From the NCBI GenBank assembly GCA_965219085.1, contig OZ244720.1, forward strand, positions 608,001 to 672,000: a stretch of 64,000 nt of DNA, written 5' to 3'. Position numbers and translations under genes: made by a program. The DNA is from Dehalococcoidia bacterium. GTDB lineage: Bacteria; Chloroflexota; Dehalococcoidia; UBA2979. Under the pieces are notes generated by a model, which did no database searches, was not told where the DNA came from, and saw only the letters and a list, made by a program, of their open reading frames with translations. Below are positions 6,001 through 54,778 of the stretch, one piece after another. Numbering within the stretch: the stretch's first letter is position 1; each line of letters opens with the position of its first letter.

Positions 6001-9000
6001 CGACCAGAACATCGTCCTCACCCTGGCCGTCACCGACAGCGGCGCCGGGGCGCTCACCGGCGTGGCCACGGTCAGCGTCACCGTGCGGGCCAACCTGGCC
6101 CCCACCGCTTCGGCGACCCCCCTCATGACCACCATCAACGGTGGCGGGCTGGTTTCGCTGACTGGCGTCGCGAACGACCTCGACCAAGACGCGCTCACCT
6201 ACGAGTGGACCAGCGACGGCGGCGGCAGCTTCAACGACCCCTCCGCTCTCATCGCGACCTGGACGGCGCCGCCGGCTACCACTGTCGATCAGCGCATCAC
6301 GCTCACGCTCACGGTGACCGACGCCGTCTCGGCCGCGGCCACGGCTCAGGTCAGCGTCACGGTGCGCGCCAACCAAGCGCCGATCGTCTCGGTTTCTCCC
6401 CCCAGCGTCACCGTGGACGGAGGCGGCACGGTCACGCTCGGCGGGACATCAAGCGATCCTGAGGGTGACACCCTCACCTACGCCTGGACCAGCGACGGCG
6501 GCGGAACCTTCACCACCCCCTCGGCCCTCCTCACTACCTGGACGGCCCCGGCGAAGACCAACGCCGACCAGAGCATCGTCCTCACCCTGACCGTTGCCGA
6601 CAACGGCGCCGGGGCGCTCACCAGCATGGCCACGGTCAGCGTCACGGTGCGCGCCAATCAGGCGCCGACGGTCACGGTTTCGCCTCCAACCGCCACCGTG
6701 GACGGAGGCGGCACGGTCACGCTCGGCGGGACATCAAGCGATCCTGAGGGTGACACCCTCACCTACGCCTGGACCAGCAACGGCGGCGGGAGCTTCGACA
6801 ATGCCTCGGTCCCCGACGCCACCTGGACCGCGCCTGACGCCACCAGTTCCGACCAGTCGATCGTCCTGACCCTCACCGTCACCGAGTCTGGCGCCGAGGC
6901 CGGCGCCCTCGCGGACACGGCAACGGTCAGCGTCACGGTGCGGGCCAACCAGGCGCCGACGGTCACGGTTTCGCCTCCAACCGCCACCGTCAACGGAGGT
7001 GACGTGCTGAGCCTCGATGGCACGGCGACCGATCCTGAGGGCCACACGCTCACCCACGCCTGGACCAGCGACGGCGGCGGGAGCTTCGACAATGCCTCGG
7101 TCCCCGACGCCACCTGGACCGCGCCGGCGGCCACGGGTAGCGACCAGAGGATCACACTCACGCTCACCGTCACTGACGACGGCGCCGGCACGCTGGAGGG
7201 CACGGCCACGGTCAGCGTCACGGTGTCGGCGCTCGGGAGCACCGCACCGACCGCCTCGGCATCCGGCATGCCAACCACTGTGCACGGTCGCGGCGTCGTG
7301 ACGCTGACCGGTACCGCGAACGACCCGCTGGGCGACACGCTCAGCTACGCCTGGAGCAGCGACGGCGGTGGGAGCTTCGACGACGCCGCGGCCCTGAGTA
7401 CGACCTGGACCGCGCCGGCGGCTGCAAGTTCCGGCCGGAGTATCACGCTCTCGCTGATGGTGACCAATACCGCCGGCGAGTCGACCACGGCGACCGTCGG
7501 CGTCAGAGTGCTGGCCAACCAGGCGCCGACCGTCTCGGTCTCCCCCGAGAGCGTCACCGTGGACGGGGGCGACACGGTGAGGTTTGATATTACGGCGTTC
7601 GACCCCGAGGGCGACACGCTCACGTACAAGTGGAGCACCGACGGCGGCGGCACTTTCGTCTGGGGAACCTTCACCTATGCCACGTGGACCGCGCCTCCGA
7701 AGACCGACGCCGTCCAGCACATCGTCCTCACCCTGATCGTCACCGACAGCGACGCCGGGGCGCTCACCGGCATGGCCACGGTCAGCGTCACCGTGCGGGC
7801 CAACCTGCCCCCGACCGCCTCGGTCAGCGCGACGCCAACCACCGTGCACGGAGGGGGCGTGGTCACGCTGGACGGGACGGCAAGCGACCCCGATGGCGGC
7901 GCCCTGACTTACGAGTGGACCGGCCCCGGCGGAGGAAGCTTCGGCGACGCCGCGGCCCTGGACACCACCTGGACCGCTCCCAAGGCCACCAGCGCCGACC
8001 AGAACATCACGCTCTTCCTCACGGTGACCGACACCGCCTCGGCTACGACGACGTTCGGCGTTAGCGTGCGATCGGAACGCGACGCCGCTGGTGTCGGCTG
8101 GGTCGCCTTCGCCACGGCGGAGGACACGGTCAGCATCACGGTGCGGGCCAACCAGCCGCCTGAGGTCTCGGTTTCCCCCGCCACAGCCGCCGTGGACGGG
8201 GATGGTGAGCTGGCGCTGACCGGGACGGCGACCGACCCGGAGGGCGATGACCTGACCTACGCCTGGAGCAGCGACGGCTGGGGGAGCTTCGACGACGATG
8301 CCGCCCTGAGCCCGACCTGGACCGCGCCGCCGGCCGAGGATGACCCCCGCACCATCACCCTGACGCTCAGGGTGACCGACAACGGCATTGGCGCACTCAC
8401 CGGCATGGCGACGGTCGAGGTCACGGTGGGGCAACCGGTCACGCCGCCCACCGGGCCCGGCGGCGGTGGGGGCGGCGGTGGTGGTGGCCCGTCGGGGCCC
8501 TCGCCGAGCGAGCTGGACTTCGAGTGGAACGTGAAGCGCGACCTCGAAGCGCTGGACGGCGGCCACGACACGCCTACCGGCTCCTGGTCCGACGGCACGG
8601 TCCTCTGGATCGCCGAGAACGGCCCGGGCGCCGGCGACGCCGTCTACGCCTACGACCTCCAGACCGGCGAACGGGTGGAGGAGCGCGAGTTCGAACTCGA
8701 CGAGCGCAACCGCGCGCCGCGCGGCGTCTGGTCCGGCGGCACGGTCATCTGGGTCTCCGACAGCGGCCAGGACCGCCTCTTCGCCCATGACCTCGAGACG
8801 GGCGAGCGCCTGCCGGAGCGCGACCTCGAGCTCGGCGAGCGCAACGGCGACGCCCGCGGGATCTGGTCCGATGGTGAGACGATGTGGGTGCTCGATGGCG
8901 GCAAGGACCGCCTCTTCGCCTACGACCTCGGGAGCGGCGAACTGGTGGCCGAATACGCCCTCGACGACGCCAACGGCGACCCCCACGGGATCTGGTCCGA

Positions 9001-10096
9001 CGGCGTCACGATCTGGGTCTCGGACCACGGCGCGAAGCGGCTCCTCGCCTACCGCCTCGAGGGTGAGGCGCTCGTACGCAACAGCGAGGAGGAGTTCACG
9101 GAGCTGAGCAAGGCCTCCAACAACAGCCCGCGCGGCATCTGGTCGGACGGCGAGGTGATCTACGTCGCCGACGAGAGCGACGACAAGGTCTACAGCTACA
9201 ACATGCCCGACGCGATCGACGCCCGGCTGGCCGCGCTGACCCTGAGCGGCATCGAGATCGGGGAGTTCACGGGGGACCGCACGGAGTACGAGGGCGTCGC
9301 CGCCGAGGGCGTGACGGAGACGACCGTCGAGGCCGCTACGGTGCAGCGCCGCACGACCGTCCTCATCGAGCCGGCCGACGCCGACGGCGACGACACGAAC
9401 GGCCACCAGCTGGCGCTGGAGGGCATCGACGCGATCACCGTCACCGTGACCTCGGCGGACGGCAGCCGCACGCGCGTCTACCGCGTGCGGCTGGAAGGCG
9501 GCGCGGCGCAGGAAGCGCCCTGGACGCACTGCTTGCGCGGCGACGTCGCTGAGGGCTTCAGCCTCGTCGTCTATGAGGGCGGCGGTGTCGAGGACCTGGT
9601 CACCTGTGCGGAGAGCCGTGATGTCGTGGCCCTCTACGCGCTGCACGGCGGCGTCTACGTCTCGTACATCCTCGGAGCGCCGGGATTCGTGAACCAACCG
9701 TTCGTCGAGCTGTTCGCCGATGGCGTCCCCCCGGTCACGCCGCTGGTCGCTGGGAGCAGCGGACCGCCATCAGCGGACCCGAACCAAGGCGACGGCGCCC
9801 TGTTGCCGTGGCCGGAGTGCCTGCGCGGCGAGATCGCCGCGGGCTTCAGCCTCGTCATCTACGAGGGCGGTAGCGTCGATGATCTCGTGGCCTGCGCGGC
9901 GAGCTTGCGCGTCACGGCCCTCTACGCGCTCCACGACGGCGAGTTCGTTCCCTACATCCTTGGTGCGCCCGACTTCGTGAACCGCGAGTTCCGTGAGCTG
10001 TTCCCGCGCGGTCTTCCGCCCCTCACGCCGCTGGTTGCCAGGAGCGAGGAGCCACCAACAGCCGGCTCCGACCGTGACGGCGCGGCAACCAACTAA
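2..10096 (+). CDS. Giant surface protein G1 (5'-truncated by window): Calx-beta/Ig repeats, LRR block, FN3, cadherin, arylsulfotransferase-like propeller, 10 PKD/REJ-like repeats, shared C-terminal cassette
   Basis: ORF 35..10096 is open back to position 2 (GLFADAPVHVTV), so the true start lies upstream. Motifs: TITISDDD (Calx-beta), LPAGVFDKLTNL (LRR, ~2200-2820), HDF..NS..QHSA..LYDNG (ASST, ~3990-5160), DPEGDTLTYAWTSDGGG x10 (~5525-8430), Gly linker and cassette from ~8450. Confidence 0.9.
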   Translation, partial: GLFADAPVHVTVLPAIAWSVTADPGTIPEDGGVSTVTVSSGGHTFSEPQTITLVLAGTATKATDYSVAGETLTLPAAATSVTTTITAVSDSVSEGSETVQVTARFGGEDVGETATITIAEGTTLTLEVDPAAIAEAGGASTVTVSTIGGTFAADQTITLVLTGSATKATDYIVAAETLTLVAGTTSVATTITAVDDVLDDNAETIVVTARHDGSDVGPATITISDDDVPVDIVWESAPNALEGAGELKATLTATAAEPRAPAAGFDLQVSTAPGSAQSPDDYAAIMMQTLTFAANDFQLVAQAGAGGGGITSQAPAFVATKEVVVTLATDLIVEADETFEVQVDLALGTSALVTLDGGRSGISETATILDDDTAAFSLSASPMTIAETGGTSTVTVTTSKAFSTGQTVELQVGNFGAAPATEGTDFTISPKTLPLAAGQKTVTATVSALDDSETEGDEKVRVRVGHNGNVQPAAVVITISDDDSAGIRVSSMALAVPEGSSSSYTVRLNTQPTGTVTVAITGQAGTDLSVSPASLTFTTATWEEERTVTVTAAQDPDAAPDAAVTLTHAATGGGYESVPDVDVTVTIAEDEAAAIVVSSMALTVEEGETETYTVRLQTPPSVTVAVIVTSSDTEVTATPQSLVFTSANWSLDRTVTVEALDDEDAEADPPVTLTHTATGGEYASVAATVSVTVTDDEITTGPLLDICERTTQVRDGILGADEVTATDCALVDADELATVAILDLEAQMITALDAGDFAGLTGLTNLVLEDNQLQALPAGVFDPLTSLTWLDLCINDLRSLPAGVFDQLTNLTDLDLYFTINLTTLPAGVFDKLTNLETLDLYGNLDLASLPDGVFDQLTNLATLNLRRNPQLSSLPDGVFDKLTSLTTLDLSHNHRLSPLPGGLFDSLTSLISLDLRSHFAPLLYSPYLLAPLTSLDTLDDQTYSRPSAPGVPTGLTGAYTTAQIELSWTAPSGGAAATSYQILRQVGSGPEEVYVEDTYNTNGAAVTYADTEVILNETYRYRVRALNAGGAGAESQPVELTTALDLSGPATVTYPENRAVRVATYTATGPTGPAWSLSGADSDKFSLEDGVLRFLLPPEPLPDYESPSDADGDNVYTVTVAITAGADTASTDVAVSVTNADEGGAVTLSTLRPSTGTAVTAAVSDPDVVTAGTVSWQWERFRGLSDWTAIDGATSAGYTPTAADSGYYLRATASYTDGEGAGKSAQAMTTSPPLSHELSSLAASNSAGGMYPVFDPPTLHYAVSCAASDIVTLSLSPKDAGARVAVNGIQRDTANDVVLTEVDPDSDILITLSGSDGAFTTYVVHCIPDDYPTIEVTERKAGAWDGLILGGATMGDRDAPNRWSALLLFDTNGVPRFHRRLGDFGVNHLKPTGGGLYPFGYAHGSPPGSPPGGRVSLMDHDLAVASFIGVPASADADEYIDAHDFAHKANGNTVIVTDDPTTRDLSAFKDVDGNPLGTAEEVEDNIIRELAPSGATLFTWNSWDHVELGDCAQHNFPGEYAWFNSIEVVDGNYLVSLKGCSKIVLIDGASGEMIWRLGKTNLTDQEWIDNGRTPPLKIVGDTYGEFCGQHSAKILDNGHLVLYDNGNVCVRDPETGQRTRQNDQFSRVVEYALDPEQGEAVFVRHHSFKNGFDMFTSATGLVAPIDNGNWLISWGRASDALATETISEVNPATDEELLHIRIEDGSGRRHATRSYPLRADQVGALSAVEPLAADFPSSASSSVVHLGPTDRPTVVVAFNQPVVDPTSAAGWISVQGATIESVSPHIISGEAANAHLITLIPAGDEPITLSLIASHACAMGGICTADGMPLSATVSVTVRFNHAPTVSATATPATVNGGGAVTLDGTASDPDPGDTLTHAWTSDGGGSFDDASTLDATWTAPAATGADQIVTLTLTVTDTAGVSAEISKSVTVRANQAPAVSVSTTPLTVGGLEAITLTGSASDPEHDALTYAWTSDGGGTFATPAALVTTWTAPAKTNADQNIVLTLAVTDSGAGALTGVATVSVTVRANLAPTASATPLMTTINGGGLVSLTGVANDLDQDALTYEWTSDGGGSFNDPSALIATWTAPPATTVDQRITLTLTVTDAVSAAATAQVSVTVRANQAPIVSVSPPSVTVDGGGTVTLGGTSSDPEGDTLTYAWTSDGGGTFTTPSALLTTWTAPAKTNADQSIVLTLTVADNGAGALTSMATVSVTVRANQAPTVTVSPPTATVDGGGTVTLGGTSSDPEGDTLTYAWTSNGGGSFDNASVPDATWTAPDATSSDQSIVLTLTVTESGAEAGALADTATVSVTVRANQAPTVTVSPPTATVNGGDVLSLDGTATDPEGHTLTHAWTSDGGGSFDNASVPDATWTAPAATGSDQRITLTLTVTDDGAGTLEGTATVSVTVSALGSTAPTASASGMPTTVHGRGVVTLTGTANDPLGDTLSYAWSSDGGGSFDDAAALSTTWTAPAAASSGRSITLSLMVTNTAGESTTATVGVRVLANQAPTVSVSPESVTVDGGDTVRFDITAFDPEGDTLTYKWSTDGGGTFVWGTFTYATWTAPPKTDAVQHIVLTLIVTDSDAGALTGMATVSVTVRANLPPTASVSATPTTVHGGGVVTLDGTASDPDGGALTYEWTGPGGGSFGDAAALDTTWTAPKATSADQNITLFLTVTDTASATTTFGVSVRSERDAAGVGWVAFATAEDTVSITVRANQPPEVSVSPATAAVDGDGELALTGTATDPEGDDLTYAWSSDGWGSFDDDAALSPTWTAPPAEDDPRTITLTLRVTDNGIGALTGMATVEVTVGQPVTPPTGPGGGGGGGGGGPSGPSPSELDFEWNVKRDLEALDGGHDTPTGSWSDGTVLWIAENGPGAGDAVYAYDLQTGERVEEREFELDERNRAPRGVWSGGTVIWVSDSGQDRLFAHDLETGERLPERDLELGERNGDARGIWSDGETMWVLDGGKDRLFAYDLGSGELVAEYALDDANGDPHGIWSDGVTIWVSDHGAKRLLAYRLEGEALVRNSEEEFTELSKASNNSPRGIWSDGEVIYVADESDDKVYSYNMPDAIDARLAALTLSGIEIGEFTGDRTEYEGVAAEGVTETTVEAATVQRRTTVLIEPADADGDDTNGHQLALEGIDAITVTVTSADGSRTRVYRVRLEGGAAQEAPWTHCLRGDVAEGFSLVVYEGGGVEDLVTCAESRDVVALYALHGGVYVSYILGAPGFVNQPFVELFADGVPPVTPLVAGSSGPPSADPNQGDGALLPWPECLRGEIAAGFSLVIYEGGSVDDLVACAASLRVTALYALHDGEFVPYILGAPDFVNREFRELFPRGLPPLTPLVARSEEPPTAGSDRDGAATN
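8452..10096 (+). repeat. Shared C-terminal cassette, copy in G1
   Basis: Begins PTGPGGGGGGGGGGPSGPSPSELDFEWNVKRDL; near-identical DNA at ~36260-38161, ~43835-45452 and ~53148-54778. Confidence 0.95.
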
Positions 10097-10121
10097 GGTG
10101 GCTTGACTGTCCCATCCTTGG

Positions 10122-10223: not shown

Positions 10224-10249
10224 CGCCGTCGGACGCGAGAGGGACGCTC

Positions 10250-11278: not shown

Positions 11279-11291
11279 GGAGCTACATCGC

Positions 11292-19538: not shown

Positions 19539-19765
19539 GCCGCGCGTTCGGCCCCGAAGTAGGACGCCACATCCGCCGCGGTACTGAACAGGCGGTGGCC
19601 CTGCGCCTCGGCGAGGATGTCGACGGCGGAGCGCCGCGGCGGCGGCGCTGCGGGCATTACGACTACGCACACCGACTGCCCAACGGGAAGGTCTTGGTCC
19701 GCCACTTCGTTCTTCCCTCCGGGCAGCACCGTTGTCATCAACTGAACTACCCTGTTCATGATCAT
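19535..19765 (-). CDS. Putative antitoxin of the PIN toxin
   Basis: GGAGGAGAG RBS before ATG 19765; 76 aa MIMNRVVQLMTTVLPGGK..RRSAVDILAEAQGHRLF..AERAA; overlaps the toxin start. Confidence 0.7.
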   Translation of the reverse strand: MIMNRVVQLMTTVLPGGKNEVADQDLPVGQSVCVVVMPAAPPPRRSAVDILAEAQGHRLFSTAADVASYFGAERAA

Positions 19766-19849
19766 CTCTCCTCCGTGTGACGGGTGGCGTCGCTCGCGTT
19801 TCCGCCAGCGCCGTGGGGCTGCGTCACACGATGATAGCGCCCATCTCGG

Positions 19850-20278
19850 CCGTGCAGCACACACGGCGCGCGTCCTCATCGAGCCCGCCGACGGCGACGG
19901 CGACGCGGCGAACGGCCACCAGGTGGGTCTGGAGGAGGGCGCGGAGATCGTCGTCACCGTGACCTCCCAGGACGGCAGCCGCACCAGGGTCTACCGGGTG
20001 TGGGTGGGGGGCGCGGAGGAAGAGCGGGAGCCCGCGCCGGAGTGCCTGCGCGGCGGCATCGCCGCGGGCTTCACGTCGTCTACGAGGGTGGCGGTGTCGG
20101 GCAGTTGGAGGCCTGCGCGCGGAGCCTGCACGTCAGCGCCCTCTACGTGCTCGACGAGGGCGCGTTCGTCTCCTACATCCTGGGCGCGCCTGAGTTCGTG
20201 AACCGGCCCTTCCACGAGCTGTTCCCGCACGGCCTTCCGCCCCTCACGCCGCTGGTCGCCGCAAGCGACGGGCGGTAG
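19850..20278 (+). pseudogene. Orphan copy of the G2 C-terminus (beta-sandwich end + CLRG domain), frameshifted
   Basis: Near-identical to ~37731-38161; TTCAGCCTCGTCGTC is shortened to TTCACGTCGTC near 20071. Confidence 0.9.
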
Positions 20279-38421: not shown

Positions 38422-38822
38422 TGCCCCGTTGAACCTGGGAGAGCGCAACACGCTCGCGCGAGGGGGCAACTGGTGCGTCGGACGGTCGCGAAGTCGAACG
38501 GGAACGCTCGGCAGGCAGGCGCAACTGCGCTGAACGAGCGCGCGTGTGGGTGTCGCGCCCGCGCTGCCAGAACGAACGTCCCCCCAAACTTGTTCCACCC
38601 GGATCGCGCCAGGCCGGTCCGGTTCCTTCGCCCGGCCCTAACGCTCTCGCCTCGCCGCACGCGCGGAGCGCACCCGTGCAGCAAGACGAACCACCGTCGC
38701 ACGTGATGCCCCAGAGATTGAGGGCCGTGGCGCCACCCCTCGCGAGCCGACGCTGCCGACGCGAGGAGGCCCAGCGGCGGCCACCCGCGCCGGGCGGGAG
38801 CACACACACCCGAGGCACAACG

Positions 38823-44800: not shown

Positions 44801-45452
44801 CATCGACGCGATCACGGTCACCGTGACCTCGGCCGACGGCAGCCGCACGCGCGTCTACCGCGTGCGCCTGGGAGACCCGGACCGGCAGGCGACGCCCGAT
44901 CCCTGGACGCACTGCTTGCGCGGCGACATCGCCGAGGGCTTCAGCCTCGTCGTCTATGAGGGTGGCAGCGTCGAGGAGCTGGTCACCTGCGCGGAGAGTC
45001 GCGATGTCGTGGCCCTCTACGCGCTGCACGGCGGCGTCTACGTCTCGTACATCCTTGGAGCGCCGGGGTTCGTGAACCAACCATTCGCCGAGCTGTTCGC
45101 CGATGGTGTCCCCCCGGTCATGCCGCTGGTCGCTGGGAGCAGCGGACCGCCATCAACGGACCCGAACCTCGGCGACGGCGCCCTGTTGCCGTGGCCGGAG
45201 TGCCTGCGCGGCGAGATCGCCGCGGGCTTCAGCCTCGTCATCTACGAGGGCGGTAGCGTCGATGATCTCGTGGCCTGCGCGGAGAGCCTGGACGTCACGG
45301 CCCTCTACGCCCTGCACGACGACCAGTGGGTCTCCTACATCCTCGGAGCGCCCGAGTTCGTGAACCGCCCCTTCCGTGAGCTGTTCACCGACGGCCTTCC
45401 CCCGCTCACGCCGCTGACCGCCAGGAGCGCGGGGCCTCCCGCAGCCAACTGA
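38823..45452 (+). CDS. Giant surface protein G3: signal peptide, ~9 FN3 repeats, cadherin/Ig repeats, C-terminal cassette
   Basis: Start reassigned to ATG 38823 (MTRIRRPGFPVLLAALALGGLMLALSPAGAPPVDA|QQ), the same N-terminus as G5; YDLRYI/YDVQVRA FN3 motifs; PDYE/PDFE cadherin motifs. Confidence 0.92.
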   Translation: MTRIRRPGFPVLLAALALGGLMLALSPAGAPPVDAQQGSVPDQPTGLVTTAVHDSVALSWNDPGDTSITHYQVLRRDRDVHAAGEFVTIKENTGSPATSYTDTTVAPERRYTYRVQAVNRHGVSQWSSFARADTPAAPAPPPEDESSPADLAPSGLTAEAGADGGVALTWTAPAADAAAVTGYELLRAAGKAEPASLALTAVTSTAHTDTTATQAGETYSYQVKALRDQEQSEGSNRASVTLPQHTPGPGDAQARQTKPGTPTLVEVGAGDTKLRVIWKAPPPESGAPINTYDLRYIETSADEAIETNWTVIETIWDRLGMAGPYEYTLTALTNGTGYDVQVRARAASGPAGTGDWSNTLSDTPAAVPDAPGAPQVTRSDGMLDFTWSAPADNGTGAITSYDLRYRAGSGDWTEITGVWTETDGGALAGNLPNLTNGVTYRLQVRAVNANGGGLWSAGAEGVPATLPGVPRFVTKWTSGDGYLGVLWSSPESDGGANVTHYDLRYIETSANAMIDGNWTEKLDVSTRASSYRLTGLTNLVEYRLQLRAVNDVGPGPWDTGFKDTPRKPPGPPSIDLVTSADGSLTIAYSPPPVVEGAGDIASYRLSWIRGHTGGLWSVANDLPTSAPLEYTISGLNNGARYTLELRVYDEFGDYNDSVRAVGIPGAPTSPAAPTIDALTASSGAFSITWEAPYNGGAAITSYDLRYIRNDAASKADANWTLEEEVWSAGALWYALSGLTDWVAYDVQVRAENSVGVGAWSATKTGTPGTAPSAPTIDEVYYVDDEFRRMLMEWTAPTSDGGSTITNYHVRFTYTASQQSEVFDDFWDPSKALGVVLPLNPHDVGVEVGFEVRAVNVAAAGPWSAMTTWTTPGTPDAPTGVTAVAADRKIIVTWEAAVTGDAAVIAYDLRYRWIIPGSPNKFWTLIRDVWTPGSGELRYTRTGVPNHREHGVQVRARNHLSLIVSGEGWSATVRATPVPLPTVQGDAAVLYEENGSAAVHDYHGDVSEGSVSWSLSGDDAGAFSVNTDGLLRFKASPDYEDEDDQNADNDYLVTVEATVETETDSYTGSLEVVVTVTDDDEAPVVSGRTSVNYPENSTAAVADYDAEDPEGAAITWSLAGDDDGAFHIDNGGVLTFRMSPDYEAPPAANRDNVYNVTVQASDGNETGTRAVTVTVTNDDEPPVISGPATVGYDEGDTGQVADYDAPDPEGATIVWSLSGSDANDFSIDANGVLRFNSPPDFETGGGSYTVTVRASDGANPVTQPVTVTVNNLDEQGTVTLSSAQPQVGTLLFATFDDPDGTTSNESWTWARSTDGSSWTDISAVLSRFYTPVADDVGNYLRVTVSYDDGHGSGKNAQESTDRQVRAAPVSNQDPVFSEQTPARSVMENSGPGTPVGAPVTADDPDGDTLTYAISGGRTDLFSVEGNGQIRVKPGATLDYETGTTSYSITLEAADPSDAVASVDVSITITDVDEPPVAINDEARTSEDTAWEFDVLANDEDPEDPSGQSLTISLRQSPANGVVKLADDSKKVSYTPRDNFNGFDTFTYRAFDGANYSADATVVVTVLALNDDPVFPAGPFDFSVQEGAPGATLVGTPVTATDIDGETLEYTLTGSPHFEIDLYSGQISVAPGAVLDAEDTHTVTVRAEDTGILFDEVDVTITVTESRPVRRTTGGGGGGGGGGPSGPSPSELDFEWNVKRDLEALDGGHDTPTGAWSDGTTLWVLENGDGAGDAIYAYDLNTGERLEEREFELDERNRAPRGVWSGGTVIWVSDSGQDRLFGHDLETGERLPERDLELDEDNGAARGIWSDGERMWVLDGGKDSLFAYDLGSGALVAEYALDDANGDPHGIWSDGVTIWVSDHGAKRLFAYRLEDGELVRNSEEEFTELSKASNNSPRGIWSDGEVIYVADESDDKVYSYNMPDAIDARLASLTLSGIEIGEFSGDRTEYDGVAAEGVTETTVEAEALQRRTTVLIEPADAGGDDTNGHQLALEGIDAITVTVTSADGSRTRVYRVRLGDPDRQATPDPWTHCLRGDIAEGFSLVVYEGGSVEELVTCAESRDVVALYALHGGVYVSYILGAPGFVNQPFAELFADGVPPVMPLVAGSSGPPSTDPNLGDGALLPWPECLRGEIAAGFSLVIYEGGSVDDLVACAESLDVTALYALHDDQWVSYILGAPEFVNRPFRELFTDGLPPLTPLTARSAGPPAAN
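43835..45452 (+). repeat. Shared C-terminal cassette, copy in G3
   Basis: Propeller and beta-sandwich DNA nearly identical to G2; CLRG pair similar to G1. Confidence 0.95.
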
Positions 45453-45882: not shown

Positions 45883-45892
45883 ATCTGCACTG

Positions 45893-46058: not shown

Positions 46059-46304
46059 ATGACGCTGCCCGGCGGGGTGCTGCTGGTGCTGGACGCCGCG
46101 TGGGAGCGGGCGCAGGTCGCTGACTTCCTCGTCCGGAACACGATCGCGCAGAGCCGCGTATCGGAGCTGGGATTCGCTCCGAACGCCTTCCTCGTGGAGA
46201 CCGATCCCGGGTTCCCGTCGCTGGACCTGGCGAACGCCCTGGCCGGTCAGGACGGGGTGCTGAGCTCGAGCCCGAGCTGGCGCAGGGAAGTGGTCGCCAC
46301 GTGA
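46059..46304 (+). CDS. Small ORF coupled to G4; putative free-standing subtilase propeptide/chaperone
   Basis: MTLPGGVLLVLDAAWERAQVADFLVRN..NAFLVETDPGFPSLDLANALAGQDGVLSSSPSWRREVVAT; GTGA overlap with G4; preceded by a 12-codon ORF from the AGGAGG RBS (GTG 46024) overlapping by ATGA. Confidence 0.6.
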   Translation: MTLPGGVLLVLDAAWERAQVADFLVRNTIAQSRVSELGFAPNAFLVETDPGFPSLDLANALAGQDGVLSSSPSWRREVVAT

Positions 46305-49300
46305 GGTGGCCGGCGCTGCTGGCTGCCTGCGTGCTCCTTGGCGTCATGGCCGCGCCCGGCCTCGCGCGCGCGCAGATGCCGCCGCCCGTCGCCGCCCCGA
46401 CCGTCGACTCGGTCACCCGCGGCGACGAGTCGCTGATCGTGCACTGGACGGCGCCCGCCGGCGTCGACGCGGCCGATATCAGCGCCTACGACCTGCGCTC
46501 GATCGAGAGCGACGCCCCGGACAAGGCCGCCGGCCTCTGGACCCCCGTGTTGGACGCCTGGAGCGCGGGCGACCTGCGCTACCTCCTCAGCGGCCTGACC
46601 AACGACACGCAGTACGACGTGCAGGTGCGCGCGGTCACGATGGATGGCGAGGGCTCTTGGTCGGCCACCGTCACCGGCACGCCTGCCGACCACAGCGGCG
46701 CGACCGCCGGCGCGACCGCGCTGGCGCTCGACTCCACGGCGACCGGCGTCATCGAGTCGGGCGACGACGAGGATTTCTTCAAGATCGTGCTGAGCAGCGC
46801 CGCCGACCTGTGGCTCTACACGACCAGCAATCTCGACAGCGTGGGCGTACTGTACGACTCCATCGGCGACGTCCTCGAATCCGACGATAACGGCTTGTGG
46901 CCGGACGGGCCGCAGGACTTCGAGATCCGCGCCGAGCTGGAAGCGGGAACCTACTATGTCAGCGTCGGCGGTAACCACTCGAAGGTCACCGGGCCGTACA
47001 CGCTGCATGCGCGAACGGCGACCGCCGCCGGCGGCTCCCTCGCCGACGCGACGGCCATCACCCTCGGGGCCCCGGCGCCGGGGCGGATCGACGCGGCGGA
47101 CGACCGGGACTTCTTCAAGATCGTGCTGACCAGCGCCGCCGATCTGTGGATCGTCTCCAGCAGCGACACTGATCTGGTCGGGAAGCTGCTCGATGCCCAC
47201 GGGGTTGTCATCGCCCAAAATGACGACAGCTACCTTTGGTTCAGCCGTGCCAACTTCGCGATCTGGCACGAGGTGGAGGCGGGCGCCTATTACATCGAGG
47301 TGCGCGCTTTTCAATCGAGGACCGGACCGTATACGCTCCACGCCCGAACGCTCACCCCACCCGGTGGCTCGATCGCCGCCGCCGCGGACATCGACCTGCT
47401 GCAAACGCCGGCGCGGCTGGACTCGGCGGCCGACGAGCACTACTTCGCCCTCACGATCGATGCCGACGAATACCTGTATATGGACGCGGTTGTCAGCCAT
47501 GCCTTATTCCGTCCCGACGACCCCGCGTCGCTGGCTGCGGAGGTCTTCGACCAGGATGGCAATCCGGTGGACATCTATCAGATCCCCCACAGCGCCTACA
47601 TCGAGGACGGGCGGTCGTCCATCAGTTTTTCGATCTTCGGCAAACTCAGCGCCGGCACGAACTACTTCAAGATCTCGTCTCCCTCTGGCAAGCCCGGACC
47701 TTACCTATTCACGATCTATGGCGATATCGCGTACACCAGATTCATCAATGAATGCATCGCCCTGGAGACCCCAGTCAGCGACCCCCTGTACGGATGTCAG
47801 TGGCACCTGCGCAACAGCGGGCAATACCCCGGAGGGGCGGAACAGGACATCAACGTCGAAGCCGCGTGGACCACGACCAAGGGCGCCGGCGTGAACGTCG
47901 CCGTGGTCGACGACGGGATGCACCTCGAGCACGAAGACCTGACGGGCAACGCCGACCCATCCCGCAACCGGAACTACTCCGCTCGCGCCGGCATATTCAA
48001 CCCCTTCGAGACCCACGGGACGCGCGTGGCCGGCCTGATCGCGGCGCGGGACAACAACATCGGCATGCGCGGCGTCGCGCCCCAGGCCACGATCTACGGC
48101 TACAACCTGTTGGCGGACTCCACGGACGCGAATACGGCGGACGCCATGTTCCGGATGGGCGAGGGGTCCACGACGGGGGACGAGGACACCGCCGTGTCCA
48201 GCAATAGCTGGGGACCACCAGGCAACTTCATCCCGCAGGCCGCACCCGCCGTCTGGGAGCTGGCCGTCCAGAAGGGGGTGACGATCGGCAACCACGGCAA
48301 GGGGGTCTTCTACGTCTTTGCCGCCGGCAACGGAGCGATCATCGACGGCGCCAATCTGAGCGAACACGCGAACTACTACGCCGTCACCGCCGTCTGTGCC
48401 GTCAACCACGACGATGTGAGAAGCGTCTACTCGGAAGTGGGCGCGAACCTGTGGGTATGCGCTCCATCCAGTGATAGTCATGATACTGGTCTGCCGTGGA
48501 TCGCGACGACCGATACCGGCCACCGCTACACGCCCAGCTTCGGGCGCACGTCCGCCGCCGCTCCCATGGTCTCCGGCGTGGCCGCGCTGCTGCGCAGCGC
48601 CAATCCCAGCCTGACCTGGCGGGACCTCAAGCTCATCCTCGCCGCGTCCGCACGCAAGAACGATGCCGACAACACGGGCTGGCAGGAGGGCGCCCTGAAG
48701 TACGGCTCTACCACAGACGACGACCGTTATTCGTTCAACCACGAGTACGGCTTTGGCGTGGTGGACGCCGGGGCCGCCGTCGCTCTGGCCGATGGCTGGA
48801 GCAACGTTCCGGCTCTGCGGGAGATCAGCGCGGAATCGGCCGACGAGGATCTGCAGATTCCCGACGCTCCGAGCCTCATGACCCCGGGCAACTCGGTCAC
48901 CAGCAGCGTGACCGTCGACCCCTATGTGGGATTTGTCGAGTTCGTCGGGATCAACGTCACGTTCGACCACACGTTCTTCCGCGATCTGGAGGTTCTGCTG
49001 ATATCCCCCTCCGGCGCCACGTCGCAGCTGACCCGCGCCTGGTCATTCGTGGGAAGAACAGTGAATTACGCCATCCGCTTCGGCTCGGCGCGGCATCTCG
49101 GCGAGAACGCCGCCGGCGAGTGGACGCTTCGCATCACGGACAAGTGGCCGGGTGGACAGGGAAAGCTCGTTGGGTGGAGCCTGACCGCCTACGGACATGG
49201 GTTCTCGCCCGGGCGCCCCGAAATCGGCATGGTGGCGCCCGGCCTCGGCGAGCTGACGGTTGACTGGAGCGCCCCCGGCGACATCGGCGGCTCGGCCGTC

Positions 49301-52300
49301 AGCGCCTACGACCTGCGCTCTATCGAGAGTGACGCCGCCGACAAGTCGGACGACAACTGGACCGTGGAGGCAGGCATCGGGACCGTGGGCGACCTGCAGT
49401 ACACGGTCTCCGGCCTGGACGCCGGCTCCGCCTACGACGTGCAGGTGCGGGCGGTCAACGCCGCCGGCGCGGGTCCCTGGTCGGCCACGCGAGTCGGGGC
49501 AACCGTTGCCACCGACGACGCCAGCCTCAGCGCCCTGGCGCTGAGCGAGGGCAGGCTGGCGCCGGCGTTCGCCGGCGGGGTGACGTCGTACACGGCATCG
49601 GTCGGGTACACGGTCACGCAGATCACCGTCGCCGCCACCGTGAACGACGCCGGCGCCGCGGTCGCGTTCCTCGACGGCAATGGCAACGCGCTCGCCGACG
49701 CCGACGGCAACGCGACCGGCCAGCAGGTCAACCTGTCGGTGGGCGACAACGCGATCAACGCGCAGGTGACGGCGCGTGACGGCGTCACTACGCAGACCTA
49801 CACCCTCACGGTCACGCGGACGCAGGAGGACACGTCGCTGACGCCACCTGCGAGCGACCCCGTCGTCGCGGTCGCGTCGTCGGCCGTCTACACGATCACG
49901 TTCCAGGGGAAGTGGACCAGCGCCGTCACGCCGGAGGGCCTGCCCGGCAACGCCCACTTCTCGCGCCTCATCGGCGCCGTCCACAACGCCGCCGTGACCT
50001 TTCTCGAGAGCGGCAGGACGGCCAGCGCCGGCGTCGAGTCGATGGCGGAGAACGGGTTGACGTCGGCCCTCTGGAGCGAAATCACCAACGCCGGGCCGAA
50101 CGCGACCGCCGTCCTCGAGGGGACCACGAACTCCATCGACCCAACCCTCTCAAGGACGCTCAGCGGCGTCACGCTCAGCACCGAGCACCCGCGGGTCACG
50201 CTGACGACGATGGTCGCCCCGAGCCCGGACTGGTTCGTCGGCGTCTCGGGGCTGCCCCTGCTCGACGGCATGGGTCGCTGGCTGCGCTCGCACGAGGTGA
50301 ACCTCTACCCGTGGGACGCCGGGACCGAGGACGGGACCGGGTTCTCGCTGTCGAACCCGGCGACCTCGCCGCAGGGCGTGATCACGAGCATCCGCGGGAC
50401 GGGCAAGTTCTCGACCGCGCGGATCGCGACCTTGACATTCACGCTCCAGTCGGTCTCCCCGTCCTTCCCCGCCGGCGAGAGCGGCGCCCGCAGCATCCCC
50501 GAGAACACGGCCGCCGGACAGAACGTCGGCGCGCCGGTCGCGGCCACGGACTCCGACGGCGAGACGCTCAGCTACACGCTGGGCGGGACCGACGCCGCGT
50601 CGTTCGACATCGTCGCCACGTCGGGCCAGCTGCGGACGCAGGCGGCTCTCGACTACGAGACCAAGTCCGGCTACGCGGTGACGGTCACGGTCACGGATCC
50701 CTCCGGCCTCAGCGCCGCGGTCGACGTGACCATCAGCGTCACGAACGTGAACGACCCTCCCCTGGTCACGGGCGATACCGAGGTGAGCTACGCCGAGAAC
50801 GACACGTCGGACGTGACCACCTACGGCGCCACGGACCCCGACGACGACACGATCACCTGGTCGCTCTTGGGGACGGACGGCGGCGACTTCGGCATCAGCG
50901 ACATCGGCGTGCTGCGCTTCGCCACCACGCCCGACTTCGAGACGCCGGTCGACGCCAATCGGGACAACGTCTACGAGGTGACCGTGCGTGCCGACGACGG
51001 CGCCGACCCCGTCACGCTCGGCCTGACCGTGACCGTGACCAACGACGGCCAGCCGCCGGAGTTTCCCTCCGCGACGGACACGCAGGGGGTCGCCGAGAAC
51101 AGCCCCACGTCGACGGTCGTCGCCACGGTCACGGCGACCGACCCCGACGGCGAGGCGCTCACCTACACGCTGGGCGGCGCCGACGCGGCGTCGTTCGACA
51201 TCGCCAATAGCGCCGTCGGGCAGTTGCGCGCCCAGGCGGCGCTCGACTACGAGGCCCAGAGTTCGTACCAGGTCGTCGTCACGGCCACGGACCCCTACGG
51301 CCTGAGCGACAGCATCACGCTGACCATCAGCGTCAGCGACGTGAACGAGGCGCCGGCCTTCCCGGCCGGCGAGAGCGGCGCCCGCAGCATCCCCGAGAAC
51401 ACGGGCGCCGGACAGAACATCGGCGCGCCGGTCGCGGCCGCGGACGACGACAACGACGCGCTGACCTACACCCTGGGCGGCACGGACGCCGCGTCCTTCC
51501 GCATCGGCGCCTCGTCGGGCCAACTGCGCACCGATGCGGCGCTGGATCGCGAGACGAAGAGCGCCTACACGGTCAGCGTCGGGGTCCGCGACAGCCGGGA
51601 CGCCGGCGGCAACCCGGACACGGCCACGGACGACACGATCACGGTCACGATCGCCATCACCGACGTGAACGAGCCGCCGGTCATCGACGGCCCGGCCAGC
51701 GTCAACTTCGCCGAGGGCGGCACGGGAACGGTCGCCACCTACACCGCCACGGACCCGGAGGGCGCCATCATCTGGGAGCCGCTTGCGGGGCCGGACCGCG
51801 ACCACTTCACTTTCAGCGGCGGCGTGCTGGGCTTCGTCGCGCCGCCCGACTTCGAGTCGCCCGTGGACAACGGCGGCAACAACGAGTACTCGGTCAGGGT
51901 GCGCGCCTCCGACGGCGCGAACCCGGCCACGCTCGACGTGACGGTGACCGTCGTCAACGAGGAGGAGCCGGGGACGCTCGGCCTCTCCTCGCAGCAGCCG
52001 CTGGTGGGGACCACGCTCGGGGCGACGCTGACGGATCCCGATCGCGTGCTCAGCGAGTCGTGGTCCTGGCGCCGCTCCCTGAACCGCAGCACCTGGAGCG
52101 AGATCACGGGGGCGACGTCAGCCAGCTACACCCCGCTCGCGGCCGACGACCTCAACCACTACCTGCAGGTCACGGTCGAGTACACCGACGGCCACGGCTC
52201 CGGCAAGCGCCTGACGCAGGCGACGGACGATGTGGTGGAGGAGCCACCGCCGGTGAACAACCCGCCGGCGTTCGCCGACCCGAGCACGTCGCGCTCCGTC

Positions 52301-54778
52301 GCCGAGAACTCGGCCGAAGGGACGCCCGTCGGTGCCCCGGTCACGGCCACCGACGCCGACGGCCATAGGCTGGGGTACACGCTCACCGGCGGCGACACGG
52401 ACATCTTCACCGTCGACAGCGGGAGCGGCCAGATTCGGGTCGCGCGGGGTGCGGCCCTCGACCACGAGGCGGGCATCTCCTACTCCGTCACGGTCACCGC
52501 CAGCGACCCCCTGACCGCCTCCGATAGCATCTCTGTCAGCATCAGTATCGACGACGTGAACGAGCGGCCACAGGCGGTCGACGACGCGCTCACGATCGAC
52601 GAGGACGCGCCGGGAACCCTCATCGAGGTGCTGTCCAACGACAGCGACCCCGAGGGCGACGCCCTGACCGCCACGGTGAGCACGCAGCCTGCCAACGGCG
52701 TCGCCGAGGTCGATGCCGCCAGCAACGAGATCACGTACACGCCCAAGGCCGACTACCACGGCGCGGACAGCTTCAGCTACGCCGTCTCCGACGGGAGCCT
52801 CTCCGCCGAGGCCACCGTCGCGGTGACCATCGACCCGCTCAACGACGACCCCGAGTTCGCGGGGGCCACGGCCGGGCGCTCGGTCTCCGAGAGCGCGCAG
52901 GAAGGGGACGACGTCGGCGCGCCGGTCACCGCCAGCGACGTGGACGGCGACGAGCTCACCTACCGGCTGACCGGCGCCGCTGCCTCGGACTTCGAGATCG
53001 AGGAGCACAGCGCCCAGGTCACCGTGCGCGACGGGGTCGTGCTGGACGCCGCGAACCGGCCCGCCTACGCGGGCACGGTGATCGCAGAGGACGGGAACGG
53101 CGGGACGGCGAGCATCGAGGTCACCATCACCGTGTCCAGCGCCGGCCCCACCGGCCCCGGCCCCGGCGGCGGGGGCGGCGGAGGCGGTGGTGGTGGTGGC
53201 CCGTCGGGGCCCTCGCCGAGCGAGCTGGACTTCGAGTGGAACGTGAAGCGCGACCTCGAAGCGCTGGACGGCGGCCACGACACGCCTACCGGCTCCTGGT
53301 CCGACGGCACGGTCCTCTGGATCGCCGAGAACGGCCCGGGCGCCGGCGACGCCGTCTACGCCTACGACCTCCAGACCGGCGAACGGGTGGAGGAGCGCGA
53401 GTTCGAACTCGACGAGCGCAACCGCGCACCGCGCGGCGTCTGGTCCGGCGGCACGGTCATCTGGGTCTCCGACAGCGGCCAGGACCGCCTCTTCGCCTAC
53501 GACCTCGAGACGGGCGAGCGGCTGCCGGAGCGCGACCTCGAGCTCGACGGGGACAACGGCGCCGCCCGCGGCATCTGGTCGGATGGCGAGAGGATGTGGG
53601 TGCTCGACGGCGGCAAGGACAGCCTCTTCGCCTACGACCTCGGGAGCGGCGCGCTGGTGGCCGAGTACGCCCTCGACGACGCCAACGGCGACCCTCACGG
53701 GATCTGGTCGGACGGGGTGACGATCTGGGTCTCCGACCACGGCGCGAAGCGGCTCTTCGCCTACCGCCTCGAGGATGGGGAGCTCGTACGCATCCGCGAG
53801 GAGGAGTTCACGGAGCTGAGCAAGGCCTCCAACAACAGCCCGCGCGGCATCTGGTCGGACGGCGAGGTGATCTACGTCGCCGACGAGAGCGACGACAAGG
53901 TCTACAGCTACAACATGCCCGACGCGATCGACGCCCGGCTGGCCGCGCTGACCCTGAGCGGCATCGAGATCGGGGAGTTCACGGGGGACCGCACGGAGTA
54001 CGAGGGCGTCGCCGCCGAGGGCGTGACGGAGACGACCGTCGAGGCCGCTACGGTGCAGCGCCGCACGACCGTCCTCATCGAGCCGGCCGACGCCGACGGC
54101 GACGACACGAACGGCCACCAGCTGGCGCTGGAGGGCATCGACGCGATCACCGTCACCGTGACCTCGGCGGACGGCAGCCGCACGCGCGTCTACCGCGTGC
54201 GGCTGGAAGGCGGCGCGGCGCAGGAAGCGCCGTGGACGCACTGCTTGCGCGGCGACGTCGCTGAGGGCTTCAGCCTCGTCGTCTATGAGGGCGGTGGCGT
54301 CGAGGACCTGGTCACCTGTGCGGAGAGCCGTGATGTCGTGGCCCTCTACGCGCTGCACGGCGGCGTCTACGTCTCGTACATCCTCGGAGCGCCGGGATTC
54401 GTGAACCAACCGTTCGTCGAGCTGTTCGCCGATGGCGTCCCCCCGGTCACGCCGCTGGTCGCTGGGAGCAGCGGACCGCCATCAGCGGACCCGAACCAAG
54501 GCGACGGCGCCCTGTTGCCGTGGCCGGAGTGCCTGCGCGGCGAGATCGCCGCGGGCTTCAGCCTCGTCATCTACGAGGGCGGCGTGGAGGAATTGGGGGC
54601 CTGCGCACAGAGCCGGCACGTTACGGCCCTCTACGCCCTACAGGACGGAGAGTGGATCCCCTACATCCTCGGCGCCCCGGAGTTCGTGAACCGCGAGTTC
54701 ACGGAGTTGTTCCCCGACGGCCTGCCTCCCATCACCCCGCTGGTCGCCAAGAGCGAGGGGGCCCCCGCAGCCAACTGA
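46301..54778 (+). CDS. Giant surface protein G4: signal peptide, FN3, PPC-like, kexin-like S8 + P domain, 1 FN3, Spondin_N, cadherins, C-terminal cassette
   Basis: Paralog of G2; VAVVDDG/THGTRVAG/FGRTSAAAP; Spondin MVAPSPDWFVG..PWDAGTEDG; lacks GSDH and ASST. Confidence 0.93.
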   Translation: MRWPALLAACVLLGVMAAPGLARAQMPPPVAAPTVDSVTRGDESLIVHWTAPAGVDAADISAYDLRSIESDAPDKAAGLWTPVLDAWSAGDLRYLLSGLTNDTQYDVQVRAVTMDGEGSWSATVTGTPADHSGATAGATALALDSTATGVIESGDDEDFFKIVLSSAADLWLYTTSNLDSVGVLYDSIGDVLESDDNGLWPDGPQDFEIRAELEAGTYYVSVGGNHSKVTGPYTLHARTATAAGGSLADATAITLGAPAPGRIDAADDRDFFKIVLTSAADLWIVSSSDTDLVGKLLDAHGVVIAQNDDSYLWFSRANFAIWHEVEAGAYYIEVRAFQSRTGPYTLHARTLTPPGGSIAAAADIDLLQTPARLDSAADEHYFALTIDADEYLYMDAVVSHALFRPDDPASLAAEVFDQDGNPVDIYQIPHSAYIEDGRSSISFSIFGKLSAGTNYFKISSPSGKPGPYLFTIYGDIAYTRFINECIALETPVSDPLYGCQWHLRNSGQYPGGAEQDINVEAAWTTTKGAGVNVAVVDDGMHLEHEDLTGNADPSRNRNYSARAGIFNPFETHGTRVAGLIAARDNNIGMRGVAPQATIYGYNLLADSTDANTADAMFRMGEGSTTGDEDTAVSSNSWGPPGNFIPQAAPAVWELAVQKGVTIGNHGKGVFYVFAAGNGAIIDGANLSEHANYYAVTAVCAVNHDDVRSVYSEVGANLWVCAPSSDSHDTGLPWIATTDTGHRYTPSFGRTSAAAPMVSGVAALLRSANPSLTWRDLKLILAASARKNDADNTGWQEGALKYGSTTDDDRYSFNHEYGFGVVDAGAAVALADGWSNVPALREISAESADEDLQIPDAPSLMTPGNSVTSSVTVDPYVGFVEFVGINVTFDHTFFRDLEVLLISPSGATSQLTRAWSFVGRTVNYAIRFGSARHLGENAAGEWTLRITDKWPGGQGKLVGWSLTAYGHGFSPGRPEIGMVAPGLGELTVDWSAPGDIGGSAVSAYDLRSIESDAADKSDDNWTVEAGIGTVGDLQYTVSGLDAGSAYDVQVRAVNAAGAGPWSATRVGATVATDDASLSALALSEGRLAPAFAGGVTSYTASVGYTVTQITVAATVNDAGAAVAFLDGNGNALADADGNATGQQVNLSVGDNAINAQVTARDGVTTQTYTLTVTRTQEDTSLTPPASDPVVAVASSAVYTITFQGKWTSAVTPEGLPGNAHFSRLIGAVHNAAVTFLESGRTASAGVESMAENGLTSALWSEITNAGPNATAVLEGTTNSIDPTLSRTLSGVTLSTEHPRVTLTTMVAPSPDWFVGVSGLPLLDGMGRWLRSHEVNLYPWDAGTEDGTGFSLSNPATSPQGVITSIRGTGKFSTARIATLTFTLQSVSPSFPAGESGARSIPENTAAGQNVGAPVAATDSDGETLSYTLGGTDAASFDIVATSGQLRTQAALDYETKSGYAVTVTVTDPSGLSAAVDVTISVTNVNDPPLVTGDTEVSYAENDTSDVTTYGATDPDDDTITWSLLGTDGGDFGISDIGVLRFATTPDFETPVDANRDNVYEVTVRADDGADPVTLGLTVTVTNDGQPPEFPSATDTQGVAENSPTSTVVATVTATDPDGEALTYTLGGADAASFDIANSAVGQLRAQAALDYEAQSSYQVVVTATDPYGLSDSITLTISVSDVNEAPAFPAGESGARSIPENTGAGQNIGAPVAAADDDNDALTYTLGGTDAASFRIGASSGQLRTDAALDRETKSAYTVSVGVRDSRDAGGNPDTATDDTITVTIAITDVNEPPVIDGPASVNFAEGGTGTVATYTATDPEGAIIWEPLAGPDRDHFTFSGGVLGFVAPPDFESPVDNGGNNEYSVRVRASDGANPATLDVTVTVVNEEEPGTLGLSSQQPLVGTTLGATLTDPDRVLSESWSWRRSLNRSTWSEITGATSASYTPLAADDLNHYLQVTVEYTDGHGSGKRLTQATDDVVEEPPPVNNPPAFADPSTSRSVAENSAEGTPVGAPVTATDADGHRLGYTLTGGDTDIFTVDSGSGQIRVARGAALDHEAGISYSVTVTASDPLTASDSISVSISIDDVNERPQAVDDALTIDEDAPGTLIEVLSNDSDPEGDALTATVSTQPANGVAEVDAASNEITYTPKADYHGADSFSYAVSDGSLSAEATVAVTIDPLNDDPEFAGATAGRSVSESAQEGDDVGAPVTASDVDGDELTYRLTGAAASDFEIEEHSAQVTVRDGVVLDAANRPAYAGTVIAEDGNGGTASIEVTITVSSAGPTGPGPGGGGGGGGGGGGPSGPSPSELDFEWNVKRDLEALDGGHDTPTGSWSDGTVLWIAENGPGAGDAVYAYDLQTGERVEEREFELDERNRAPRGVWSGGTVIWVSDSGQDRLFAYDLETGERLPERDLELDGDNGAARGIWSDGERMWVLDGGKDSLFAYDLGSGALVAEYALDDANGDPHGIWSDGVTIWVSDHGAKRLFAYRLEDGELVRIREEEFTELSKASNNSPRGIWSDGEVIYVADESDDKVYSYNMPDAIDARLAALTLSGIEIGEFTGDRTEYEGVAAEGVTETTVEAATVQRRTTVLIEPADADGDDTNGHQLALEGIDAITVTVTSADGSRTRVYRVRLEGGAAQEAPWTHCLRGDVAEGFSLVVYEGGGVEDLVTCAESRDVVALYALHGGVYVSYILGAPGFVNQPFVELFADGVPPVTPLVAGSSGPPSADPNQGDGALLPWPECLRGEIAAGFSLVIYEGGVEELGACAQSRHVTALYALQDGEWIPYILGAPEFVNREFTELFPDGLPPITPLVAKSEGAPAAN
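53148..54778 (+). repeat. Shared C-terminal cassette, copy in G4
   Basis: Mosaic of G1-type and G2/G3-type segments. Confidence 0.95.

Follow-up and report, generated by a model that had tools for sequence, protein, structure and literature searches.

Secreted proteins are held at the bacterial surface by folded modules such as SLH, CWB2, SH3b, GW and LysM, or through C-terminal sorting signals such as those of the LPXTG/sortase, PEP-CTERM/exosortase and type IX secretion (T9SS) systems, and in the cellulosome many enzymes are plugged into one receptor by their dockerins. In Chloroflexota the retention of proteins at the surface is poorly understood. Passages of PMC10284905 describe cultured Tepidiforma (order Tepidiformales) as monoderm bacteria whose envelope has peptidoglycan and a tetragonal surface layer (S-layer), and name marine sponges as the first source of Tepidiformales sequences. 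Here we describe, in a 64,000-nt stretch of the genome of a Dehalococcoidia bacterium (hereafter the window), a C-terminal cassette shared by giant secreted proteins whose payloads differ widely. The cassette ends in a tandem of a previously unrecognised domain, here termed CLRG, and we propose that it may act as a handle that retains these proteins at the cell wall.

The window (assembly GCA_965219085.1, contig OZ244720.1; G000:C1:608001-672000 of the single 3.3-Mb contig of this genome, G000) has a G+C content of 66-73% and holds five very long open reading frames (ORFs) on the + strand, G1-G5. Translations and motif positions place a common C-terminal cassette at the end of G1, G2, G3 and G4. 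This confirms what an initial annotation of the window had noticed, namely varied payloads on one common tail, which motifs and alignment now put at 537-628 amino acids (aa). The features concerned, together with two decayed remnants, are listed below; domain names refer to Pfam families, and AF2 stands for AlphaFold2.

2..10096, + strand: G1, giant secreted protein, open at its 5' end in the window (full ORF G000:605296-618096, with signal peptide)
within 2..10096, + strand: G1 payload, with Calx-beta, LRR, fn3, arylsulfotransferase-like and K319L-like PKD repeats
8459..10096, + strand: G1 cassette, with poly-Gly, propeller, Cadherin-like domain, CLRG1 (9515-9784) and CLRG2 (9803-10072)
24131..38161, + strand: G2, 4676 aa, with a payload of signal peptide, fn3, PPC, subtilase S8 and P-domain, Spondin_N, GSDH propeller, cadherins and an arylsulfotransferase-like domain
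36275..38161, + strand: G2 cassette, 628 aa, with CLRG1 (37331-37600), an extra Cadherin-like domain and CLRG2 (37907-38158)
38544..45452, + strand: G3 ORF, likely start 38823 (MTRIRRPGF..., signal peptide)
within 38544..45452, + strand: G3 payload, with fn3, cadherin and Big_9
43836..45452, + strand: G3 cassette, with CLRG1 (44898-45167) and CLRG2 (45186-45449)
46301..54778, + strand: G4, 2825 aa, with a payload of signal peptide, fn3, PPC, subtilase S8 and P-domain, Spondin_N, cadherins and Big_9
53165..53200, + strand: poly-Gly hinge of G4, 12 Gly
53201..53950, + strand: five-bladed NHL-like beta-propeller of G4 with RGIWSDG blades (AF2 model, fold searches, profile against PDB sequences)
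53939..54202, + strand: Cadherin-like beta sandwich of G4, PF12733 (Pfam)
54227..54775, + strand: tandem CLRG of G4 (54227-54496 and 54515-54775), ending ...SEGAPAAN and followed by the stop (motifs, alignment, AF2 model)
58597..64000, + strand: G5, 3' end outside the window, with its cassette beyond the window (genome ORF 666534-677792)
19758..20278, + strand: decayed, frameshifted cassette remnant (end of the Cadherin-like domain and CLRG), beside insertion sequence (IS) elements and transposase genes
57602..57865, + strand: decayed CLRG remnant, an 87-aa open frame

The order of the cassette is constant: a run of 10-12 Gly, PSGPSPSELDFEWNVKRDL, a five-bladed propeller, a Cadherin-like domain (PF12733) and two CLRG domains of ~90 aa each, somewhat larger than the ~75 aa first estimated. 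GPSPSELDFEW, a single 10-12 Gly run and two CLRG motifs are present in each of G1-G4, and so is a W[SV][DG]G blade motif, repeated five times at ~45-aa spacing; the WSDG propeller noted at the outset is present and can be specified as five NHL-like blades. Counted from the poly-Gly run, the cassettes measure 545 (G1), 628 (G2), 538 (G3) and 537 aa (G4), that of G2 being longer because a second Cadherin-like domain lies between its two CLRG domains. PF12733, which also occurs in G1-G4, was matched in cassette residues 255-342 (E 9.3e-8, 32.9 bits against a cut-off of 24.2). The seven CLRG copies of the window have a mean column identity of 78%, and both of the Cys expected in each are invariant in the alignment; the Cys pair is also nearly invariant in the wider set. 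Only 0-11 residues separate the last CLRG domain from the end of the protein in the window cassettes, which therefore have no room for a transmembrane helix or an LPXTG tail.

We could not assign CLRG to any described family. The tandem alone returned no Pfam family at E<=10, with one sub-threshold line (13.3 bits), and no NCBIfam family at the same threshold; the NCBIfam library holds C-terminal sorting-domain models, and those for T9SS C-terminal domains and other sorting signals were among the unmatched. The whole cassette gave only sub-threshold propeller matches in NCBIfam. CLRG had no match among PDB sequences, none of 120 listed public homologues was named, and their precomputed Pfam annotations comprise PF12733, PF22729 and payload families only. 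A description of the tail domain was not found in the literature searched, whose coverage excluded subscription journals. An AF2 model of the tandem (44 sequences; predicted local distance difference score, pLDDT, 87.2; predicted template modelling score, pTM, 0.81) gives each domain the order strand-helix-strand-strand-helix-strand. Foldseek returned no PDB match for it at E<=0.001 (best E 0.28), and a wide search with VIA found no chain at Z>=5 among 48,161, the best Z being 4.2; RCK gating-ring domains have the same secondary-structure order and reach Z 3.0-3.8 only. As modelled, CLRG has no clear structural relative, a search result that does not make the fold new. CLRG is thus an unrecognised domain, as had been suspected.

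The cassette is not confined to this locus. A single CLRG copy used as query gave 78 tblastn-type matches in the 3.3-Mb genome, and a hidden Markov model (HMM) of the seven window copies found 80 domains in 44 six-frame ORFs, an abundance far beyond chance. CLRG-bearing ORFs of at least 600 aa number 35 and cover 277,134 bases, or 8.4% of the genome. In 33 ORFs a full-length propeller is followed ~100 aa on by CLRG. Apart from frameshifted fragments, we found no intact ORF in this genome with a full-length propeller of the cassette type that lacked CLRG, and CLRG without propeller occurs only as fragments or weak matches. In 27 of the 35 ORFs the Gly run stands 348-370 aa upstream of the first CLRG. 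Ten cassette genes, G5 included, follow one another in the same orientation (+ strand) from 588 kb to 719 kb of the genome. What was first described for this locus is a genome-wide phenomenon, and G5 is among its members.

CLRG is strictly placed in most of these proteins: in 29 of the 33 ORFs with propeller and CLRG, at most 15 aa follow the last CLRG. Among the exceptions are an ORF of 8473 aa, which has six CLRG domains followed by a tail of 636 aa, and one of 2256 aa, with three CLRG domains and a tail of 411 aa. The former, at G000:C1:1867596-1893017, also has several extra partial propeller matches; no other member is as large or as atypical. Most cassette ORFs begin with an N-terminal Sec-type signal; the signal peptides first reported for G2-G5 are present, and G1 has one too, upstream of the window. 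Among 18 further members in this genome, payloads include subtilase (5), GSDH (2), GH16 (1), arylsulfotransferase-like (1) and Spondin_N (3) domains, together with cadherin, fn3, Calx-beta, LRR and SWM repeats, so that enzymes and adhesion-type domains are both represented, in these as in G1-G4.

CLRG is restricted to one lineage. A pattern scan with one genome per species gave 49 public loci, all from Dehalococcoidia, Tepidiformaceae, Dehalococcoidaceae or Chloroflexi/Chloroflexota metagenome-assembled genomes (MAGs). In these loci 50 of the 56 CLRG ORFs end within 15 aa of the domain, and the Gly run is kept 308-376 aa upstream in 36 of the 39 external ORFs long enough to judge. A profile search of 1.84 billion representatives returned 1317 proteins at E<=0.001, of which 456 reached E<=1e-10 and 174 E<=1e-30; among the best 150 of the 1317, exactly two CLRG domains were counted in 142 and an end within 15 aa in 119, and many of the others carry Arg-rich tails that resemble frameshifts. 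Within the order, which has a single family, CLRG was found in 83 of 98 other genomes and 19 of 21 genera; the genera g222 (0/4) and g232 (0/8), which have small genomes, are without it, and g230 has it in 1/4. A sample of the class gave 24/25 genomes in family f1, 7/25 in f22, 3/25 in f13 and 0/325 in the remainder, and a sample of the phylum 0/400 other genomes. In the f22 and f13 loci the cassette has the same poly-Gly and propeller, followed by 1-3 copies of CLRG, and across the class the full-length cassette propeller has a patchy distribution matching that of CLRG. The C-terminal position on Sec-type secreted proteins in one lineage, as established by the HMM and the genome samples, is what the initial annotation had expected of an anchoring module.

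In two loci of an f13 genome (L109 and L110, genome G808) the CLRG pair is followed by an acidic QPE(E/T)-type spacer and then by ~65-aa Cys-containing repeats ending ...SWVREEYV, which had no Pfam match. Read by eye, such post-CLRG tails (...SWVREEYL; a few representatives and f13) looked SH3b-like, a reading that we dropped as they had no Pfam SH3 match.

The link to the cell wall comes from a diverged CLRG-like domain that occurs in small Sec-type secreted proteins of the same lineage. Genera of the order without the cassette propeller gave weaker CLRG matches, in small open frames of 130-700 aa, and the set that we compiled comprises twelve loci from four genomes and two weak cases in the genome under study. 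In four genomes, namely G000 (2057340-2059280), G411, G423 and G401, the CLRG-like domain stands in one protein with SH3_3 and a Peptidase_S11 D-Ala-D-Ala carboxypeptidase (DD-carboxypeptidase); Peptidase_S11 was matched at E 1e-46 to 1e-59, and SH3_3 was seen by Pfam in 3 of the 4. Other proteins combine SH3_3 with two CLRG-like domains, or the CLRG-like domain with an AMIN-like (PF24837), CAP or CarboxypepD_reg domain. An HMM built from the window copies only scores the CLRG-like domains at 22-43 bits, so that the homology does not hinge on the two such domains that had entered a search profile, and hhalign aligned the window CLRG profile with a profile of 13 CLRG-like domains over 81 columns at 99.3% probability (E 1e-20). 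By these profile comparisons CLRG is homologous to a DD-carboxypeptidase-linked domain of small secreted wall proteins, a relationship that is new here. The usual anchors are missing: sortase (PF04203) had 0 matches in the genome, which is 92.7% complete, and SLH (PF00395) 0 matches genome-wide, with controls responding in both searches; the cassette itself was also unmatched by SLH at E<=10. Penicillin-binding protein (PBP) transpeptidase domains gave three matches in the genome.

We propose that the cassette is a non-covalent cell-wall retention handle common to interchangeable payloads, and we put the probability of this reading at about 0.5. The giant proteins would be exported by Sec and their signal peptide removed; the payload would leave first, and the cassette, last to emerge, would fold beside the membrane. 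There the two CLRG domains, probably helped by the multivalent propeller, would grip the wall non-covalently, with peptidoglycan itself or a polymer or S-layer linked to it as the target, and the poly-Gly hinge would let the enzyme or adhesin payload reach outward. Recombination among the near-identical handles would reshuffle and homogenise the genes. Many paralogues would retain one handle, on this proposal, because all dock to one receptor. We favour wall retention since the cassette is the only common element that could retain the proteins, since it has homologues in wall proteins and since the usual anchors are missing. The anchoring or S-layer docking suggested by the initial annotation has thus gained indirect support, from the homologue in peptidoglycan-associated proteins, from the lack of sortase and SLH and from the presence of PBPs; binding itself, the sub-domain responsible and the target, S-layer or peptidoglycan, we infer.

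Several points weigh against this proposal. The wall link would run through a diverged homologue that is itself only putatively wall-targeting in those enzymes, and the Cys positions differ between the CLRG and CLRG-like forms. Every part of the cassette is strongly acidic (isoelectric point, pI, 4.1-4.25); a basic character is common among wall-binding modules for anionic polymers. The f13 copies carry further domains downstream of CLRG and the 8473-aa ORF has its long tail, so that CLRG need not be terminal. An envelope of S-layer and peptidoglycan is documented for cultured Tepidiforma, not for this uncultured genome, and the genome's membership of Tepidiformales is a kinship deduced only through related contigs. 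We regard as doubtful a bolder version in which this would be an undescribed anchoring system of monoderm Chloroflexota, with a wall-targeting domain, in use in a DD-carboxypeptidase too, duplicated and fused to an NHL-like propeller as a universal plug, and ~30 interchangeable giant enzymes and adhesins per cell seated on the peptidoglycan or S-layer.

Among the alternatives, the one that survives best is that the proteins are released and that the propeller, the CLRG pair or both bind a matrix or cell-surface glycan of the sponge, or another bacterium, depositing all payloads on the same host structure. The five RGxWSDG sites per propeller recall multivalent lectin propellers, the acidic pI is compatible with this account too, and the patchy occurrence over three families, where the f13 copies are very similar (E 1e-38), would fit spread among presumed co-resident symbionts. 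NHL-like, cadherin and fn3 domains belong to the 'eukaryote-like' domains that passages of PMC8163846 report as enriched in sponge symbionts. However, the homologous domain in proteins with DD-carboxypeptidase, SH3b and AMIN-like domains points to the bacterium's own wall, and the proteins start with cleavable signals and would lack any other means of retention. The release of proteins of 2000-8000 aa, from genes that take up 8.4% of the genome, would also be costly. We consider this alternative unlikely on balance.

Less probable still is that the cassette serves self-assembly into a coat or lattice, or acts as a folding or export-completion module that would work as an intramolecular stopper or chaperone when Sec export finishes. 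The model packs the CLRG pair into a single compact unit (pTM as given above), their copy number varies from 1 to 6, and the paralogues retain near-identical cassettes, as co-assembling subunits would. Yet we saw no direct sign of self-association in this analysis, and the homologue is single and internal in small enzymes, which fits targeting better than assembly.

The propeller raises a further alternative, that it is a glutaminyl-cyclase-like enzyme which cyclises the N-terminal Gln left by signal cleavage, so that the cassette would be catalytic and not an anchor. Its AF2 model (pLDDT 84.9, pTM 0.85) has five blades, and the closest folds are indeed five-bladed glutaminyl cyclases: 3mbr by VIA (Z 23.6, root-mean-square deviation 2.6, 216 residues, 14% identity) and 3nol by Foldseek (E 2.3e-10, TM-score 0.70). 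The YjiK C-domain 3qqz (Z 20.8) and NHL domains (Z 17-18; TRIM2 NHL Z 18.1) are also near. A small-x-small|Gln site ends the signal in 21 of 26 CLRG-bearing ORFs, by a hand count made with no proper predictor or background, and Gln at +1 occurs in some other secreted proteins as well. In sequence, however, the propeller profile matched in the PDB the PknD/NHL-derived Pizza designer proteins (E 1e-13), NHLRC2 (E 0.002) and Vgb lyase, and not the cyclases. Glu_cyclase_2 (PF05096) had 0 matches genome-wide, cassettes included, with controls responding in 4 of 14 genomes; it was likewise absent from the Pfam list of the propeller at E<=10, which holds weak repeat-type matches, NCH3 (PF22729, E 3e-12), PQQ_2 and Lactonase, and in which the NHL model does not figure either. 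The conserved residues recur in every blade, as in structural or lectin-type motifs. A catalytic cassette is accordingly very improbable. Given the Pizza-type blade matches and the absence of PF05096, we reject membership of the cyclase family and name the domain an NHL-like five-bladed propeller. In blade sequence it resembles PknD-derived Pizza proteins and in fold the TRIM2 NHL domain, but it has no Pfam NHL match and has five blades (by motif count and model) where NHL and PknD propellers typically have six; with the propellers of glutaminyl cyclase and YjiK it shares the five-bladed fold, whereas the cyclase family model is unmatched.

The cassettes of the window are 88.6-94.7% identical in DNA, with a mosaic distribution of identity: an 801-bp stretch is identical between G2 and G3, and a 436-bp stretch between G1 and G4. 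Within the cassette, divergence is highest in the last CLRG (72-80% identity). Judged from the sequences, such a mosaic is the pattern that gene conversion between neighbouring paralogues would produce, and it would supply homology for the shuffling of payloads; the mix-and-match character proposed for the locus is an interpretation that the mosaic identity and the modular payloads favour. All or part of the window is contained in seven sequencing runs, with no RNA run listed among them; in four runs from one study, 0.86-0.88 of its words are present. Contigs from the reads are short and broken at repeats, the longest (40926-43865) entering the G3 cassette by 30 bases only. Collapsed or chimeric repeats can be dismissed as the source of the cassettes: word depth over them is several times that over the payloads in the four runs, as expected of any multi-copy sequence, but the four copies differ and are fused in frame to different payloads, the genome is one contig, and the architecture recurs in the other genomes of the order and in the public loci counted above.

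Both ends of these proteins have further regularities. CLRG-terminal proteins often end in Asn (...PAAN, ...PEAN, ...SASN), as in G1, G3 and G4 (10091-10093, 45447-45449 and 54773-54775), and copies of family f22 do so too. A C-terminal Asn was counted in 20/29 proteins of this genome, 23/50 in the public loci and 37/119 representatives; among 3917 background ORFs the share is 1.2%. The terminal Asn could reflect shared ancestry or a functional end residue. At the other end, the signal peptides mostly close with a small-x-small motif, after which the next residue is Gln (ARA|Q, VGA|Q), for example at window positions 24131-24210, 46301-46380 and 58597-58710, which recalls the 'Q rule' of Bacteroidetes. 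On the bolder version given above, the C-terminal Asn and the post-signal Gln would together hint at dedicated, possibly covalent, processing at both ends.

The rest of the window holds other genes. Two paralogous hybrid regulators (GAF-PAS-HisKA-HATPase-REC-Trans_reg_C), at 20854-23244 (-) and 54976-57456 (-), are divergent to and just upstream of G2 and G5, respectively, and may control these giant genes. At 15682-18979 (+) a lipoprotein-type signal (LLLTGCS) precedes more than 16 RCC1 repeats in two overlapping frames (15682-17952 and 17723-18979), which are probably one frameshifted gene. An IS630-like transposase gene lies in two pieces, 11292-12008 and 13086-13760 (-), interrupted by a Mutator-family transposase gene at 11839-13062; an IS with DDE_Tnp_1 (14085-15467) adjoins it, and a PIN-domain gene is found at 19082-19471.

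This genome, with neither sortase nor SLH, thus spends ~8% of its length on giant secreted proteins with one common tail. If the tail is an anchor, it would name a surface-display device of a core sponge-symbiont lineage, predict surface-exposed proteins at the host interface and give a portable display tag.

The payloads place the proteins near the 'eukaryote-like' proteins of sponge symbionts. Their domain types, cadherin and fn3 among them, belong to those that passages of PMC8163846 report as enriched in MAGs from sponges, with Chloroflexota among these; the passages concern domain counts, and no shared cassette or CLRG appears in them.

With the LPXTG/sortase, PEP-CTERM/exosortase and T9SS C-terminal domain systems the cassette has in common a C-terminal position, dozens of paralogues, lineage restriction and diverse payloads. 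It differs in having no transmembrane helix, no motif-plus-tail and no sortase, and a partner processing enzyme was not identified. The absence of C-terminal transmembrane helix, LPXTG and SLH recorded in the initial annotation therefore holds. A signal for secretion across an outer membrane is not expected either, since the organisms are described as monoderm in the passages of PMC10284905.

The dockerin-cohesin pair of the cellulosome resembles the cassette in being a common, internally duplicated C-terminal module found on many enzymes, which lets payloads plug into one receptor; the cassette is far larger, has no dockerin match in Pfam, and a cohesin-like scaffold was not identified.

Among the closest in kind, on the proposal of a wall-retention handle, are SLH, CWB2, SH3b, GW and LysM, which are likewise folded, often tandem modules at one end of diverse secreted proteins and hold on to the envelope, as the cassette would. 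The cassette differs from them in lacking a sequence match (SH3_3, SH3_5 and GW had no Pfam match to the CLRG tandem at E<=10), in being a composite of 530 aa that includes a propeller and an Ig-like domain, and in that its binding is putative. CLRG is predicted to be alpha/beta (beta-alpha-beta-beta-alpha-beta), in contrast to the SH3 barrel and the SLH helix bundle. A language-model search with CLRG returned SH3b/GW modules only, at a score of 0.78, which is below the meaningful level and serves as a lead. A homologue of CLRG stands in one protein with SH3_3 and a DD-carboxypeptidase.

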